DNA of 64,000 nt, from the NCBI GenBank assembly GCA_035416665.1, contig DAOLNQ010000003.1:7475-71474 (forward strand), in the 5' to 3' direction. Source of the DNA: Candidatus Saccharicenans sp. GTDB lineage: Bacteria > Acidobacteriota > Aminicenantia > Aminicenantales > Saccharicenantaceae. The translations under genes were made by a program, and so were the position numbers. The notes beneath the pieces were generated by a model. That model did not search any database. It was not told where the DNA came from and worked only from the letters and a program-made list of their open reading frames with translations. The first letter of the stretch is position 1. Each line of letters opens with the position of its first letter. Positions 7,383 to 40,451 of this stretch are shown here, piece after piece.

Positions 7383-7634
7383 CAGAAGGAGAATATCGAG
7401 TTAGGTGGTGGCCACAACAGCCGTTTTGGTTGGTTAAAGAGAAAGCTTGTTTGCTTGATTGAGCCTGAGGGAAACTCAGCTAGCAGCTGAGGAGTTCATC
7501 CACTTGACGGTCCGGTGGAACATGGACCGACCCGGCGAGAAAGGGTGGCCTGGTTCAGGAAAGGCGATTCCAGCTCATTTTTAGTTTGACATTGCCTGTC
7601 AGCCTGGGGTAAAAGGTCTTAAGGGGAGGACAAA

Positions 7635-28571: not shown

Positions 28572-29678
28572 ATGGGAAAAAGAGTAATAGGTGTATGCAT
28601 TTTTATTATATTTATAGCAAGTTCTCTATCTGCCCTGGAAATAACTTATGAAGGGAAAGTTCAGCTTGTTCAGAAAGAAGGCTTTTTTATTGGATTTCCT
28701 CGTGGTTTTGTCGTTACCGAAGACGATTTTATTGTCGTCTGTGATATCCGGGCTTCGGATTTTAAGATCTTTAATCAGGAAGGCAAGGCACTCAGTGTTT
28801 TTGGCCGGAAAGGCTATGGGCCAGATGAATTTGCCGACCCCTGGCTTCACGATTATAAAAATGGGAAATTGCTCATTTCAGATACCAGCACCAAGAAATT
28901 GTATATTTATAGTGTTGATAAAGACTTAAAATTTCAGCAGACTAAGCAGACAATTGTAACTTCAGTTATGGACGCAAAATTGATAGATGAAAAGGATATG
29001 GTTTTAATAGCCAGAATGCCTATTAAAGATAGTCCTTCTCCTACTGCTTACGTCCTCTTTGTTCTGGATATTACGAGAGGCAGCCGTGATCATCTTGTAC
29101 CCTTTGAGCTTCAACTGGGGGAAAATGAAAAGCCGGTGGATTTTGATAAACTTAAAAAAACGAATCCCTCGGATTTTCCCGATTGGATGATCTTACCCCC
29201 GTGGAAGTACTGTGACTACTCTGGAGATAACGTTTATTTCGTCTGGGCGGCTAACCTGGATATCATCAAAATTGACCTGACTACCAAAGCCCACACCAGA
29301 TTTTCGCGCAAGACCGAAAAATATATCCAGCCTAAAGTCTCTCGTGAATTTAAAAAAGCTTATAATGAACATAATTCAAAAGAATATAGGGGTTGGGTTC
29401 AAAAGATGTCCTGGGTATGTAAGGTCTTTGCGGATTCAGACATGGTGGGGATCGTTTATACCAATTTTGACAACAAAACTTCAAGGTGGAACTCTTTTCT
29501 CCAGATATATGATCACAATGGAACCTTTCTCAAAGAAGCCCCTTTAGAAAATTTCAGTAGTACTTCTGAGCGGCCTAATCTCTATTATGATAGGAACAAA
29601 AAAATACTTTACTGCCTCTCTGAAGAGTCGATAGGCACTGAAGGTGTTTATACGGTCTATAAGTACAGGCTGAGATGA
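28572..29678 (+). CDS. secreted NHL-repeat six-bladed beta-propeller protein, paralogue 2
   Basis: 368 aa. The signal peptide is MGKRVIGVCIFIIFIASSLSA. An NHL-like repeat signature is present (GRKGYGPDEFADPW), and the hydrophobic/Gly periodicity fits propeller blades. There is a 213-bp tract identical to paralogue 1. Confidence 0.7.
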   Translation: MGKRVIGVCIFIIFIASSLSALEITYEGKVQLVQKEGFFIGFPRGFVVTEDDFIVVCDIRASDFKIFNQEGKALSVFGRKGYGPDEFADPWLHDYKNGKLLISDTSTKKLYIYSVDKDLKFQQTKQTIVTSVMDAKLIDEKDMVLIARMPIKDSPSPTAYVLFVLDITRGSRDHLVPFELQLGENEKPVDFDKLKKTNPSDFPDWMILPPWKYCDYSGDNVYFVWAANLDIIKIDLTTKAHTRFSRKTEKYIQPKVSREFKKAYNEHNSKEYRGWVQKMSWVCKVFADSDMVGIVYTNFDNKTSRWNSFLQIYDHNGTFLKEAPLENFSSTSERPNLYYDRNKKILYCLSEESIGTEGVYTVYKYRLR

Positions 29679-30172
29679 AGAAAAATCTGATAATACTGTT
29701 CCTCATTTGCTCGCTAATAGTAGCTCTAAGCTTTTGTTATAAATACCATAAGCTTAGCTCATACCCAGAATTCCCATTAGAACCTGAGTCGGCAAAAAAT
29801 AATGAGGTATTACCATTCTATTTATTTTTATATTTTCATTCTCATGATTGCCCTCAGTGTTTAAGGGTCATAAATGTTCTCAACAATTTGCCACCGGAGT
29901 ATATTGTCAGGGGCATAATTCCTGACGAGGAGATAGAGGACAGCGAGAAGATTAAGGAGATAACTGGTGCTAGATTCGAATTTGAACCAGTTAGTAAATA
30001 TAAGAAGTTTAGGCCGCCGATAAGCCCGTGTTTAGTTGGCGTTTCGAAAGAAAAAGTAATATTGTTTGTCTTACCGTCAGTTCCTGACCAGGAAAAATAT
30101 TTACAGGAGTTTTTAGGGTCGTTCTACTATAGCCGTGTATTTTTTGGGTATGAAGAGCATATGTTAAATTAG
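29675..30172 (+). CDS. membrane-anchored thioredoxin-like CxxC protein
   Basis: 165 aa. The ATG overlaps the propeller stop as ATGA, which indicates translational coupling. An N-terminal TM anchor is present. The motif FHSHDCPQCLRV (Cys59-x2-Cys62) sits in a thioredoxin-fold context. Confidence 0.6.
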   Translation: MKKNLIILFLICSLIVALSFCYKYHKLSSYPEFPLEPESAKNNEVLPFYLFLYFHSHDCPQCLRVINVLNNLPPEYIVRGIIPDEEIEDSEKIKEITGARFEFEPVSKYKKFRPPISPCLVGVSKEKVILFVLPSVPDQEKYLQEFLGSFYYSRVFFGYEEHMLN

Positions 30173-36234: not shown

Positions 36235-37065
36235 ATGAATGTTTTCTTCGATATCCTGATTCTGTTCTTTATGATCTCGGCTTTGCAGCCGCTGATCAAA
36301 CAGGAATTTCTTAAGGCCTCACGCCAGAATGTAATCTCTCGCATCGAAAAGAAAACAAGATCCAGAGTTATCACTCTCATCCATCGTCAGGAAACGATGA
36401 GCATTCTGGGTTTTCCCGTCATGCGCTATATCGATATTAATGACTCGGAAAAGGTTATCCGGGCGATCCAGACAACTGATGCCGATACCCCTATCAGTTT
36501 AATTCTCCACACGCCAGGCGGTATCGCTCTGGCTGCCCTGCAAATTGCCAGAGCAATTAAGAGCCACAAAGGAAAAGTTACTGTTTATGTGCCCCATTAT
36601 GCTATGTCAGGCGGAACGCTGATTGCTCTGGCTGCCGATGAGATAGCCATGGGTGAGCATTCGGTACTGGGACCGGTTGATCCTCAAATAGATAAATATC
36701 CTGCTCCCTCTATTGTCAATGTCCTCAAGCAGAAGCCCATAGCCGAAATTGACGACGAGACTTTAATACTGGCCGACATTTCTCAAAAAGCTATCAGTCA
36801 GCTGGAACACAGCATTATTGATTTGTTACCTGATAGCTATTCTGAAGAAGACAGGAAAAGAATTTCTGATGCTTTAACCAGGGGACACTGGACTCATGAT
36901 TTTCCCATTTCTGTTGATGTCGCCCGCCAGCTGGGTTTGAAGGTGACCACAGATGTCCCGGCTGAGGTCTTTCAGTTAATGGATTTATTCCCGCAGCCGG
37001 TCAGGAGCACACCCTCCGTGGAGTTTGGGCCAGGTCCAAATTATCCGCGGGGCCAAAAAAAATAA
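36235..37065 (+). CDS. ClpP/crotonase-fold serine protease (SDH / NfeD / SppA-like periplasmic protease)
   Basis: 276 aa. An N-terminal TM helix is present. The ClpP-class motif is recognisable (LHTPGGIALAALQIARAIKSHKGKVTVYVPHYAMSGGTLIALAADEIAMG). Confidence 0.65.
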   Translation: MNVFFDILILFFMISALQPLIKQEFLKASRQNVISRIEKKTRSRVITLIHRQETMSILGFPVMRYIDINDSEKVIRAIQTTDADTPISLILHTPGGIALAALQIARAIKSHKGKVTVYVPHYAMSGGTLIALAADEIAMGEHSVLGPVDPQIDKYPAPSIVNVLKQKPIAEIDDETLILADISQKAISQLEHSIIDLLPDSYSEEDRKRISDALTRGHWTHDFPISVDVARQLGLKVTTDVPAEVFQLMDLFPQPVRSTPSVEFGPGPNYPRGQKK

Positions 37066-37344: not shown

Positions 37345-37373
37345 TTGACATCGGGTTTTGCTTTACTTAACAT
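37345..37373 (+). promoter_or_regulatory. sigma70-like promoter upstream of cytochrome operon
   Basis: TTGACA (37345-37350), a 17-nt spacer, then TAACAT (37368-37373), about 40 nt upstream of the AAGGAGG RBS and ATG of 37413. Confidence 0.4.
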
Positions 37374-37412: not shown

Positions 37413-38783
37413 ATGAAACAATTTTCGAGATGGTTAGCAGTTGGTTTACCCCTTATTCTGGCTATTTCTCTGGGGTTAATAACGTCTTCCAGCCTGCAAA
37501 AGGCTGGAGATGAAGCCCTCGGCTCAAGAAAATATAGCGACTATCAGACTCCGGCTTTCTGCGGAATTCAATGTCATAATGATATTTACCAGCAGTGGAA
37601 GCAGGCCATGATGTCTCAGGCCTATACCCATCACTGGGACGAAATTGAATATTTCAAGCTGGCTGTTCCCCAGGCTGAAAAAGACCCGGTGGTGGCCGGT
37701 GTTAAGGCTGGCTGCAACGGTTGCCACACACCCCTGGCCTTTTTAGCCGGCGATATTCCTCCGGCCGTTCCGGCCAAAGGTACCAGAGCTAATGAATCTG
37801 TTTCCTGCGAAGTTTGTCATACCATAACAGGAATGGCTGGTGATACCCCGTTTAATTTTAACTGGGTATCGGAGCCGGGCAAGAATAAGTATGGGCCGCG
37901 GCAGAATGCCAATTCTCCTGAGCATAATTTAGTCAAGTCGGATTTTCTGGCTAAGGCTGATTTTTGTGGAACCTGTCATAATGAAAAAAGCCCCTATGGT
38001 GTCTGGGTTAAATCTACTCATCTCGAGTGGAAAGCCGGGCCGTATGCTGAAGAAGGGGTTAAGTGCCACGATTGTCATATGACCTATGCTCCAGGCAAGA
38101 GCGCTTCGATGGGGACTGCCTATCCTGACGTCCGTCAGCATCTATTCCATGGAGCTCATGATCCGGGTAAAGTCCGGGGGACAGTTGAACTAAGAATTCA
38201 TCCTGATGTCAATGAGGCGGTACCAGGAGACAAAGTTAAATTCACGATTGTTCTATTTAACCAGAAGACCGGCCATAAGTTTCCGACCGGCTCAGTTGAG
38301 GACAGAATAGTCTGGATGCATGTTGAAGCAGTTGATGCCAAAGGCAATGTTTATCATCTGCCCGTCGATAAAAAAGGCTTTGAAGGTGAAGAATACACCA
38401 TTGCTGCTGACACCCTGGCTTATCAGGATATGGGTCTAGCTCTTAACGACCCGAATTTTAAGGGGGTCCAGAGAGATGGTGTGCCAGCCGGTGACCGCAT
38501 TTTCCGCCTGCCTTATTTTGATCCGCAGGGAAGGATGACCATTCAGCAATGGAACACCAAGAGCCAGGGTGTTGATTATCGAATTGGTCCGAAGGAAACC
38601 AAGATCGAAACCTGTACCTTTGCTCTGCCCGATAACGTTCCAGCTGGACCCTTAACAGTCAGGGCCACCCTTTATTATCAGCGTCTGGTTAAACCGGTGG
38701 CCGATTTTCTGGGTGTCCCGGCTGATGAGACAGAGGTAATTGAAGTAAACAAGCACCAAACGACGATAAATGTTGTCGACTGA
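37413..38783 (+). CDS. periplasmic multiheme (pentaheme) c-type cytochrome
   Basis: 456 aa with a signal peptide. Four canonical CxxCH motifs are present (CNGCH, CEVCH, CGTCH, CHDCH), plus one Cx3CH (CGIQCH) near the N-terminus. Confidence 0.8.
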   Translation: MKQFSRWLAVGLPLILAISLGLITSSSLQKAGDEALGSRKYSDYQTPAFCGIQCHNDIYQQWKQAMMSQAYTHHWDEIEYFKLAVPQAEKDPVVAGVKAGCNGCHTPLAFLAGDIPPAVPAKGTRANESVSCEVCHTITGMAGDTPFNFNWVSEPGKNKYGPRQNANSPEHNLVKSDFLAKADFCGTCHNEKSPYGVWVKSTHLEWKAGPYAEEGVKCHDCHMTYAPGKSASMGTAYPDVRQHLFHGAHDPGKVRGTVELRIHPDVNEAVPGDKVKFTIVLFNQKTGHKFPTGSVEDRIVWMHVEAVDAKGNVYHLPVDKKGFEGEEYTIAADTLAYQDMGLALNDPNFKGVQRDGVPAGDRIFRLPYFDPQGRMTIQQWNTKSQGVDYRIGPKETKIETCTFALPDNVPAGPLTVRATLYYQRLVKPVADFLGVPADETEVIEVNKHQTTINVVD

Positions 38784-38805
38784 AGACTTTTAGCGGAGAG
38801 AAAAA

Positions 38806-39978
38806 ATGAAAAAGCTTACAGGAATGATTTTACTCTCAGTGGTTTTAATTTTTATTCTGGCTTCCGAAGCCTGGTCAATTCCGGCTTTTGCCCGCAAATA
38901 CAGTATAAGCTGTAAGGTCTGCCATAACCCTTTTCCACGCCTCAAGCCCTATGGTGATGAGTTTGCCGGGAATGGCTATGTGATTAAGGACAAAGAAACA
39001 CCACGCTATAATATTGATACCGGCGATAGTACGCTTTCACTCTTGAGAGAACTGCCTATTGCCATCCGGTTTGATGGCTTTCTGAGTTTCAACAATGCTC
39101 ACAATAAGCGGCTTGATTTCTCGGCGCCTTATATCATCAAGTTGATGTCAGGTGGAGAAATCGCCAAGCACATTTCCTATTATTTATACTTTATTTTCAC
39201 CGAAGGAGGCGAGATAGCCGGGCTGGAAGACGCTTTTCTCATGTTCAATAATCTGTTCAAAACTAACCTGGGCTTTTTTGTTGGCCAATTTCAGGTGGCA
39301 GACCCGCTCTTTAAGAGAGAGTTGCGCTTAACTTATGAAGATTACCGAATTTATGGAGTTAAAGTCGGGCAGGCCAGGGTTGATCTGACCTATGACCGGG
39401 GAGTAATGCTGACCTATGGGCTGCCTACTGGTACTGACCTGACGCTGGAGGTCGTTAATGGCATGGGCCTGGATCCAGTCGATGATTTTGGAACTTTTGA
39501 TAATGATAAATATAAGAACTTTATGCTGCGAGTTTCACAGGATTTATCGCCGGAACTCAGAGCCGGGGCTTTCGGCTATGTCGGGAAGGAGCGGCAGGAT
39601 AACGTCAATGACAGCCTGTGGATGGCTGGCGGGGACCTGACCTGGTCTCAGCCTAAATTCCAGTTCAACGCGCAATACCTTTATCGAGAGGATAAGAATC
39701 CCTACTTTTTAATAGCCGAAGCGGAGAAAATTCAAACCCAGGGTGGATTTGCTGAACTGCTCTATTTTCCTCATGGCGATGATTCGCGCTGGTATACAGT
39801 AGCGCTTTTTAACTGGGTTGATTCAGATCAGCCCGACCTGGATTACACTTCGGCCGGCCTCCATTATGGTTACCTTTTACGAAGAAATGTCCGGGCGACG
39901 ATTGAAGCTACCTATGTTTTTAAGAGTGATTTGCCCAAGCACTTGCGGTTCGGTCTGGGATTAATTACGGGCTTCTAA
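38806..39978 (+). CDS. outer-membrane beta-barrel protein with N-terminal heme c-binding site (CxxCH)
   Basis: 390 aa with a signal peptide. The mature N-terminus reads SIPAFARKYSISCKVCHNPFP, which gives one CxxCH. The remainder shows alternating hydrophobic/aromatic beta-strand periodicity rich in Y and G, and the C-terminus ends in ...GLGLITGF with a terminal Phe. The gene starts 22 nt after the stop of the cytochrome gene. Confidence 0.6.
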   Translation: MKKLTGMILLSVVLIFILASEAWSIPAFARKYSISCKVCHNPFPRLKPYGDEFAGNGYVIKDKETPRYNIDTGDSTLSLLRELPIAIRFDGFLSFNNAHNKRLDFSAPYIIKLMSGGEIAKHISYYLYFIFTEGGEIAGLEDAFLMFNNLFKTNLGFFVGQFQVADPLFKRELRLTYEDYRIYGVKVGQARVDLTYDRGVMLTYGLPTGTDLTLEVVNGMGLDPVDDFGTFDNDKYKNFMLRVSQDLSPELRAGAFGYVGKERQDNVNDSLWMAGGDLTWSQPKFQFNAQYLYREDKNPYFLIAEAEKIQTQGGFAELLYFPHGDDSRWYTVALFNWVDSDQPDLDYTSAGLHYGYLLRRNVRATIEATYVFKSDLPKHLRFGLGLITGF

Positions 39979-40451
39979 TCGCGAAGAAAGGGCTTAAAAG
40001 ACAGAACTGGATTAGCTGAAAAAGGCTAGACCTCAACCTGAGCGACGGGGAGCCCGGGGTCCTGGCTTCATGACGAGGCTTAAAACTACAATAAGAAAAA
40101 TGGTCCGAGCTGGAGATAGATCCTCTGCCCGCAATTGAAAAGTAGTTAACTCTTATATCATTAAAACACTTAAACAATGGAAGATTTTGGCTGTTCCCTA
40201 TTTATATTAATCTTGTTTATCATCTTAAGCAGCCTTAGAAATTTTTAGCAGAAGAGCCACCGCCTCTTTCTACGGAATCAGAACTAAGCGGCGAAACCGT
40301 GGATCAATCTATCACTCATTATAGTCACGGATAAGGGGCAGAGGCCGAGGGTAAAGATAGCAGCTCCTTTCTTAAGGCGCCAGTGCTTTTTAACCCAGGA
40401 TTTTTATTGTTAGAATTGAGTCAGAAGTGATATATTCGAACCAGGTCGAAA

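Follow-up and report, generated by a model that had tools for sequence, protein, structure and literature searches.

Which way, and for what substrate, electrons might cross the outer membrane of a bacterium that encodes a multiheme cytochrome beside a heme-bearing barrel is the question raised by a two-gene locus of Candidatus Saccharicenans sp. (Acidobacteriota; Aminicenantia). The locus lies in a stretch of 64,000 nucleotides (nt), here called the window, which covers positions 7,475 to 71,474 of the forward strand of contig DAOLNQ010000003.1 (NCBI GenBank assembly GCA_035416665.1). A preliminary description of this DNA had proposed that the locus is a two-gene module, in which a periplasmic pentaheme cytochrome and an outer-membrane barrel with its own heme site form a minimal porin-cytochrome conduit. 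The coordinates of both open reading frames (ORFs), which are separated by 22 nt, were confirmed, and no other ORF of at least 80 amino acids (aa) in the window contains a heme motif:

37413..38783, + strand: ORF1, 456 aa, secreted pentaheme c-type cytochrome of the c552/ExtKL "PHC" family (ORF listing, profile and PDB matches)
38806..39978, + strand: ORF2, 390 aa, Cyc2-family fused monoheme cytochrome-porin (ORF listing, published Cyc2 criteria and homology)

An electron conduit at the outer membrane is still the best reading of the locus, in a form other than the one first proposed. With a probability of about 0.62, ORF1 and ORF2 constitute one operon encoding a six-heme electron route for dissolved iron, leading across the outer membrane into the periplasm. 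The pair would then consist of a Cyc2-type 16-strand outer-membrane porin with a fused monoheme domain and a dedicated, soluble periplasmic PHC pentaheme partner. The assignment of the two proteins, their joint inheritance and the readings that compete with this one are considered in turn.

ORF2 and the Cyc2 family

Cyc2 proteins were defined by Keffer et al. 2021 (PMC8406198) by a signal peptide, one CXXCH, an upstream (A)XPXFAR[Q/K][T/Y] motif and a length of at least 365 aa. According to the same study, PXFAR[Q/K][T/Y] is unique to Cyc2, a PXL motif lies four residues past the CXXCH, and the porin part was modelled with 16 strands on OprP/OprO. Examples are Acidithiobacillus ferrooxidans Cyc2, Leptospirillum Cyt572 and Mariprofundus ferrooxydans Cyc2PV-1 (PMC8406198; McAllister et al. 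2020). Each of these defining features that was checked was found in ORF2:

38806..38877, + strand: predicted signal peptide, aa 1–24 (cleavage between A-W-S and IPAFARKY, placed by eye)
38881..38943, + strand: Cyc2 signature block PAFARKY-SIS-CKVCH-NPF-PRL, aa 26–46 (heme site at 38911–38925)
39058..39975, + strand: predicted 16-strand outer-membrane beta-barrel, aa 85–390 (predicted fold; aromatic C-terminal signal ...GLITGF)
39283..39354, + strand: most conserved barrel segment, GQFQVADPLFKRELRLTYEDYRIY, aa 160–183 (rich in invariant residues in alignments A1 and A3)

The signal peptide begins with MKK followed by 16 hydrophobic residues, and the family consensus at the cleavage site is A-x-A before IPAFARKY. 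As in the Cyc2 family, one CXXCH then follows, about 11 residues from the start of the mature protein. PAFARKY (aa 26–32) fits the PXFAR[Q/K][T/Y] pattern, and 71 of 79 genome orthologs contain the strict Cyc2 motif. PRL, which corresponds to the PXL motif, starts at the fourth residue after the histidine of CKVCH and is present in 78/79 orthologs. The length of 390 aa passes the 365-aa screen of FeGenie and Keffer et al. and falls in the range of about 390–440 aa shared with the family.

The only two cysteines of ORF2 are both in CKVCH (aa 36–40), the site that the preliminary description had placed at the mature N-terminus. Of the 47 full-length cluster representatives, which extend down to 28% identity, 46 retain the CxxCH, as do 78/79 genome orthologs; because of this conservation the motif is not a chance occurrence. 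P26, C36, C39, H40, and P44 are invariant in 46 diverse relatives of ORF2. The other feature noticed early, a beta-barrel ending in phenylalanine, was borne out as well: 16 strands were predicted, and 77 of the 79 genome orthologs end in an aromatic residue (F or Y), as ORF2 does (...GLGLITGF). Fold comparison identified the anion-specific porin OprP, also the closest solved fold for Cyc2, as the nearest structural relative of the barrel. The conserved segment at aa 160–183 has a low predicted local distance difference test (pLDDT) score, and the model gives it short helices in place of strands. Judged by comparison with loop L3 of porins, it probably folds inward as a constriction loop, which may line the pore or contact the heme domain.

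Homology points to the same family. In a library of 1.8 billion proteins, ORF2 matched the distant relative P0342 (E 7e-34), whose close relatives (62–67% identity) come from Gallionellaceae, Acidiferrobacterales, Thiobacillaceae, Chromatiales, and Nitrospinota. ORF2 and the Gallionellaceae protein P0431 are 31% identical over their full length (E 1e-50), and a profile-profile comparison between the ORF2 clade and the Gallionellaceae-type clade gave a probability of 100% (E 1.5e-55, 360 columns). Both clades share the segment GQFQVSD..F.RE.RLT..D, which lies in the putative constriction loop. The Gallionellaceae Cyc2 was assigned to cluster 1 in work with FeGenie (PMC8478452). Surveys with the same tool had already called cyc2 in Aminicenantes (PMC7005843, PMC7914226), and cluster-3 cyc2 in metagenome-assembled genomes (MAGs) of Ignavibacteriales and Zixibacteria (PMC8478452). 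One of the loci related to ours (L051) belongs to a Zixibacteria MAG, and its isolate name, DeMMO3_3, points to the site of the latter study.

The published criteria, the homology between the clades and the earlier cyc2 surveys led us to conclude that ORF2 is, as judged from its sequence, a member of the known Cyc2 family. A heme-carrying barrel had been regarded as an unusual variant; this architecture is what defines the Cyc2 family, whose signature motif ORF2 carries. Since the homology to Cyc2 includes the heme domain, the heme of ORF2 is ancestral to the family and not a new acquisition. The family is large, with more than 4,670 ORF2 homologs found by a word-indexed search, all annotated as hypothetical (best protein matches 86–88% identical), and 1,640 clusters at 50% identity found by an exhaustive search. 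Pfam and NCBIfam contain no family for ORF2, the sole match being a sub-threshold one to the BBP2 porin (E 0.044), and a sequence-profile search of the PDB gave no match.

ORF1 and the pentaheme cytochromes

The upstream gene encodes a protein with five heme-binding motifs in its N-terminal half and a C-terminal half predicted to be rich in beta strands:

37413..37493, + strand: predicted signal peptide, about aa 1–27 (by eye)
37560..37577, + strand: heme site 1, non-canonical CxxxCH (CGIQCH), aa 50–55; C50, G51, C54, and H55 invariant in 32/32 sequences of alignment A4
37713..37727, + strand: heme site 2, CNGCH, aa 101–105, invariant
37806..37820, + strand: heme site 3, CEVCH, aa 132–136, invariant
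37965..37979, + strand: heme site 4, CGTCH, aa 185–189, invariant
38064..38078, + strand: heme site 5, CHDCH, aa 218–222, invariant
38184..38780, + strand: predicted C-terminal beta-rich domain, about aa 258–456 (AlphaFold2 strands and family architecture)

The predicted signal starts with MKQFSR, containing positive residues, continues with a hydrophobic stretch and has no lipobox cysteine; homologs show AxA-like cleavage sites right before a conserved KAGD..ALG motif. The five heme motifs, at aa 50, 101, 132, 185, and 218, contain 10 of the 11 cysteines of the protein, and all five are invariant in alignment A4, which comprises ORF1 and 31 homologs (n=32). The number of five heme sites in a secreted protein given by the preliminary description thus stands; what it had missed is that the first site is a CxxxCH, next to four CxxCH. 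Four CxxCH plus one CGxxCH were found in 55 of 66 full-length orthologs, and the other 11 lack the CGxxCH and contain five CxxCH. ORF1 has more than 2,600 homologs, and identities are 73–100% among the 120 matches listed.

The PHC family includes c552, Geobacter ExtKL and Gsu2801, and the pentahemes of cable bacteria (sPHC/lPHC), and its members combine a five-heme N-terminal domain with an Ig-like C-terminal domain (PMC11976967). ORF1 matched the pentaheme c552 of Thermochromatium tepidum (PDB 5ze8, chain 5ze8_A) with E 4.5e-5 in phmmer and, in the heme domain, E 5.8e-8 with a profile. The matched stretches are scattered along ORF1, beginning in its N-terminal region and reaching nearly to its C-terminus; a third stretch, in the C-terminal part of 5ze8, scored 1.8 bits and is individually non-significant. 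The two proteins are alike in their five heme sites, in their length (435 aa in c552 and 456 aa in ORF1) and in the order of an N-terminal heme domain and a C-terminal beta-rich domain, the latter predicted in ORF1. They differ in that the similarity is low and patchy, and in that the motif of c552 aligned with the first site is CxxCH instead of CxxxCH. NCBIfam ExtKL gave a weak match (aa 130–313, 39.9 bits against a cutoff of 250), and the Pfam matches (NapC/NirT, c554, and c7 heme motifs) were to generic multiheme models. The AlphaFold2 model of ORF1 was poor (mean pLDDT 44.5), with C-terminal beta strands, some of which reached a pLDDT of at least 80, and Foldseek with this model returned generic Ig-like or beta-sandwich matches. 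The C-terminal part is probably the Ig-like domain of the PHC family, and on these sequence comparisons ORF1 is a PHC (c552/ExtKL) family member.

Some databases name the homologs of ORF1 as NapC/NirT quinol dehydrogenases. We rejected this name as the product of a partial heme-motif match: the Pfam hit covers 49 residues (aa 180–228; profile positions 34–78 of 174), and NCBIfam napC_nirT scored 18 bits against a cutoff of 310.6.

The PHC family also contains a proven enzyme. MccSep (ExtKL, GSU2937-2936) is a periplasmic multiheme seleno-enzyme acting as a polysulfide reductase, and its activity needs a cysteine ligating heme 2 (C239) and a selenocysteine/cysteine (U325) that are strictly conserved in the subfamily (bioRxiv 10.1101/2025.11.18.688581). 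Its gene clusters with the barrel gene extI, and the route of its substrate through the outer membrane is open in the literature. By comparison, ORF1 could be a periplasmic enzyme like MccSep/ExtKL and the barrel a dedicated channel for small sulfur, nitrogen or metal species, in which case the barrel heme would be an auxiliary redox or gating site. We consider this combination improbable. The two proteins are of the same broad family, as periplasmic pentahemes with an Ig-like domain, both of which traits are probable for ORF1, and the conservation of ORF1 would suit an enzyme: its orthologs are 57–95% identical across several phyla, always more conserved than the barrel, and alignment A4 contains 15 invariant histidines and long invariant blocks including QHLFHGAHD and NQKTGHKFPTGSVEDRIVW. 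The relationship of the barrel to an anion-specific porin would suit a channel. However, ORF1 lacks both the heme-ligating cysteine and the selenocysteine/cysteine of the catalytic loop, the invariant histidines are enough for bis-histidine ligation of all five hemes, and strict conservation of the CxxCH in the barrel is not expected of a mere channel.

The specific identification of ORF1 as an MccSep-type polysulfide reductase was rejected, both defining catalytic residues being missing. C401, the sole cysteine outside the heme motifs, varies among C, F, and L in the homologs, and no in-frame UGA was found inside ORF1. Since there is neither a conserved cysteine outside the heme motifs nor an internal UGA, ORF1 is not an enzyme of that type.

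Comparison with Mtr- and Pio-type conduits

The barrels of the MtrAB/PioAB type are heme-free, and it was on this premise that the pair had first been seen as a new, minimal conduit of the MtrAB/PioAB/Pcc type whose barrel had independently gained a heme. The resemblance is one of gene arrangement and presumed role: as in MtrAB/MtoAB/PioAB and Geobacter Pcc, a cytochrome gene adjoins the gene of an outer-membrane barrel, the two are tightly linked, and a function in electron transfer across the membrane is presumed. On the other hand, MtrCAB and PioAB/MtoAB insert a decaheme cytochrome through a barrel of 26 strands (PMC8406198), whereas ORF2 is predicted to have 16 strands, carries its own heme, and is homologous to the Cyc2 family over its full length, heme domain included. 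Following the reasoning of PMC8406198, a pore of this size would be too small for a protein with five hemes and a probable Ig-like domain, and the model of a threaded multiheme would therefore not apply. With the wrong barrel size and the wrong homology, we rejected a complex of the Mtr/Pio type as highly improbable and regard the original comparison as not apt.

Linkage, co-divergence and distribution of the pair

Co-occurrence across genomes had been proposed as a test of the module, and the pair passed it in two collections. In a genome scan with one genome per species, which found 306 relatives of ORF2, linkage was assessed in the best 80 loci and one earlier locus. An ORF1 ortholog lies directly 5' of the barrel gene on the same strand in 78 of these 81 loci, that is, in 78 of the 79 assessable ones; two loci are truncated where their contig stops, and the third (L023) has no pentaheme gene. 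The approximate gaps between the aligned ORF1 and ORF2 segments range from about 12 to 423 nt. A reciprocal search starting from ORF1 in independent Joint Genome Institute (JGI) metagenomes found the barrel gene directly 3' in all 75 assessable loci, defined as those with enough downstream DNA. In the exceptional locus (L023, 5914–7140), which is from an Ignavibacteria MAG, a histidine kinase and another ORF take the place of the pentaheme.

The two proteins also diverge together. Their identities to the copies in the window co-vary with a Pearson coefficient of 0.83 (143 pairs), and in every one of the 143 pairs the pentaheme is more conserved than the barrel (median identities of 73% and 53%). 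Joint inheritance and divergence as tight as this are in keeping with a specific interaction between the two proteins.

Carriers of the pair are Aminicenantes and Saccharicenans, many Ignavibacteria, Bacteroidota, Zixibacteria, Gemmatimonadales (Gemmatimonadota), Holophagae, and Glassbacteria. The Ignavibacteria include a MAG of Melioribacter roseus (L037) and the cultured strain Rosettibacter primus 4148-Me (L036). This distribution, in Aminicenantes, Ignavibacteria, Bacteroidota, Zixibacteria, and Gemmatimonadota, sets the ORF2 clade apart from the classical iron oxidizers with Cyc2.

Linkage weakens with distance from ORF2. Among five relatives that are 37–44% identical to it over the aligned segment, two (L086 and L088) have the pentaheme and three (L084, L085, and L087) do not. 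No pentaheme gene was found beside the Gallionellaceae-type gene in the one locus examined, nor beside the genes of the distant relatives P0249, P0261, and P0272. The ORF2 clade, about 31% identical to the Gallionellaceae-type clade, thus differs from it in being almost always preceded by a pentaheme gene. From the side of the PHC family, none of the relatives named above has been reported beside a Cyc2-type gene; ExtKL clusters with ExtI, a heme-free barrel (PMC11976967).

The individual proteins are not of a new kind: ORF2 belongs to the Cyc2 family, ORF1 to the PHC family, and the Aminicenantes had already been reported to have cyc2. What appears to be new is a Cyc2 clade that is near-obligately coupled, across several phyla, to one highly conserved pentaheme. 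We found no published description of this pairing, including in the multi-omics paper on Melioribacter, in a search that had most subscription journals outside its reach.

In the loci compared, the pair has no constant third member, and its neighbours vary by lineage. The next commonest neighbours are paralogous histidine kinases (19 loci) and a TPR protein (15 loci, mainly Aminicenantes). In the 19 loci, which are mostly from Ignavibacteria and Bacteroidota and include L018, L020, L023, L025–L027, L034, L035, L040, L041, and L043, at least one sensor histidine kinase lies within a few kb at variable positions. A 1,033-aa Reg_prop/Y_Y_Y kinase is encoded directly 3' of the pair in L086. In another Aminicenantes genome (L001, 6592–8443), the pair is directly preceded by genes for an extracytoplasmic function (ECF) sigma factor and a zf-HC2 anti-sigma factor and by a gene with a weak Secretin_N match, which could be a dedicated regulatory module in that lineage. 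Several MAG records with the pair, annotated by third parties, are titled Eubacteriales, Clostridia, Alphaproteobacteria or Hyphomicrobiales ("uncultured"), among them L004, L005, L009, L010, L013, L015, L022, L047, and L059. The barrels of these records are 57–74%, and the pentahemes 65–84%, identical to the window copies, and the titles look unreliable as taxonomy.

Proposed electron route and its direction

In the mechanism that we favor, a small dissolved redox species, most probably Fe2+, would enter the pore and exchange an electron with the Cyc2 heme. The pentaheme would dock at the periplasmic mouth of the barrel and shuttle electrons between the Cyc2 heme and partners in the inner membrane or periplasm whose genes lie elsewhere. 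Heme attachment, localisation, docking, the iron substrate and the direction of electron flow are all features that we infer. For the direction, analogy makes us lean toward Fe(II) oxidation, that is, electron uptake. One reason is that all three of the Cyc2 members tested biochemically are Fe(II) oxidases (PMC8406198); another is that a hydrated ion would be an apt partner for a heme lying deep inside a narrow pore.

Several points weigh against this view. The genes of the window are fermentative or heterotrophic, and no respiratory chain was found within its 64 kb. The Candidatus Saccharicenans lineage itself is described as fermentative, and for both reasons lithotrophic iron oxidation is not an obvious fit. 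As far as the sequence can tell, the pentaheme, strongly conserved and with 15 invariant histidines, could be an enzyme as well as an electron shuttle. What ties ORF2 to Cyc2 is the published motif, its predicted fold and its homology to a clade recognized solely by the taxon names of its members. Moreover, in the periplasm Cyc2 canonically works with Cyc1/c4-type cytochromes (PMC8406198, PMC7914226) and rusticyanin, not with multihemes of the PHC family, and Keffer et al. regard the homologs outside Cluster 1 as functionally uncertain (PMC8406198).

Some of these points would be accommodated if the same anatomy worked in reverse, as an electron outlet in which reducing equivalents of fermentative or anaerobic origin leave the inner membrane by way of the pentaheme, which passes them to the Cyc2 heme and from there to a small soluble acceptor inside the pore, such as chelated Fe(III) or some other small oxidant. 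The hosts of the pair are mostly anaerobic or facultative heterotrophs and include Fe(III)-reducer lineages (Melioribacter, Ignavibacteria), and the purely fermentative gene content of the window points the same way, as does FeGenie's own caveat on cluster 3. In addition, c552 (5ze8) is called low-potential in the title of Chen et al. 2019, as cited in PMC11976967, and a low potential would favor downhill flow from the pentaheme to a Cyc2 heme of higher potential. Nevertheless, no Cyc2 member is known to carry out a reduction, and the three out of three that were tested oxidize Fe(II) (PMC8406198). Fe(III) is insoluble at neutral pH, and its chelates, or humics, would probably not fit through a pore of 16 strands that is narrowed by a constriction loop. 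An electron outlet is a serious alternative, though we judge it unlikely, if a good deal less so than an enzyme with a channel. The broader proposition that the pair is a distinct, obligately coupled six-heme system serving something other than canonical lithotrophic Fe(II) oxidation, in either of these two forms, is a serious but still doubtful possibility.

Whichever direction applies, the pairing bears on the use of cyc2 as a marker. The gene is widely used to recognize microbial iron oxidation in metagenomes, and it is accepted that the role of its homologs is uncertain outside the classical iron oxidizers. Here a large, multi-phylum clade of these homologs forms a fixed two-gene unit with a specific pentaheme, which connects the Cyc2 family with the c552/ExtKL pentahemes and supplies a concrete, testable electron path for the clade. 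The pentaheme gene can serve as a second marker that separates this clade from stand-alone Cyc2, and Melioribacter roseus and Rosettibacter primus, which carry the pair, are cultured organisms in which the path can be tested. If the pair were instead an electron outlet or an enzyme with its channel, many of the calls that equate Cyc2 with iron oxidation in these lineages would be misassigned. Likewise, a direction or a substrate other than that of Fe(II) oxidation would mean revising what has been inferred about the iron cycle in subsurface and sediment communities.

Candidate expression signals and surroundings of the locus

Candidate signals for transcription and translation accompany the two genes:

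37345..37373, + strand: promoter-like site TTGACA - 17 nt - TAACAT (consensus scan), about 40 nt 5' of the ORF1 start codon
37401..37408, + strand: Shine-Dalgarno-like ribosome-binding site AAGGAGGG for ORF1 (sequence reading), 4 nt before the ATG at 37413
38795..38800, + strand: Shine-Dalgarno-like ribosome-binding site GGAGAG for ORF2 (sequence reading), inside the 22-nt intergenic gap

A sigma70-type promoter had been assigned to 37345–37373. The site is present and is the best of the region in a consensus scan, with 10 of 12 consensus positions; the scan as a whole, with 7 sites against 5.1 expected from shuffled sequence, showed no enrichment. The two closest relatives (L002 and L089) retain the site in the midst of diverged adjacent DNA, and more distant relatives have another conserved element, TTGCC...TG(T/A)GGTAAT, at the corresponding place. 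Pattern and phylogenetic footprint are supportive of a putative promoter at this position.

Directly 5' of the pair, across a 347-nt intergenic region, lies a gene for an SDH-type ClpP-like serine proteinase (36235–37065; Pfam E 4e-112, NCBIfam equivalog), which is not kept beside the pair in other genomes. On the 3' side, 473 nt (39979–40451) separate ORF2 from a gene for an ABC-transporter ATPase. No terminator-like hairpin was found on the + strand of this region, and an Rfam scan of the locus and its long intergenic regions detected no RNA family. Elsewhere, the G+C content falls to 0.38–0.40 at 26000–30000, compared with about 0.44–0.50 in the rest of the window. The ORFs there include one with a weak match to a DUF5128 beta-propeller (26587–27735) and one without a Pfam family (28572–29678), and this region may be a horizontally acquired island.

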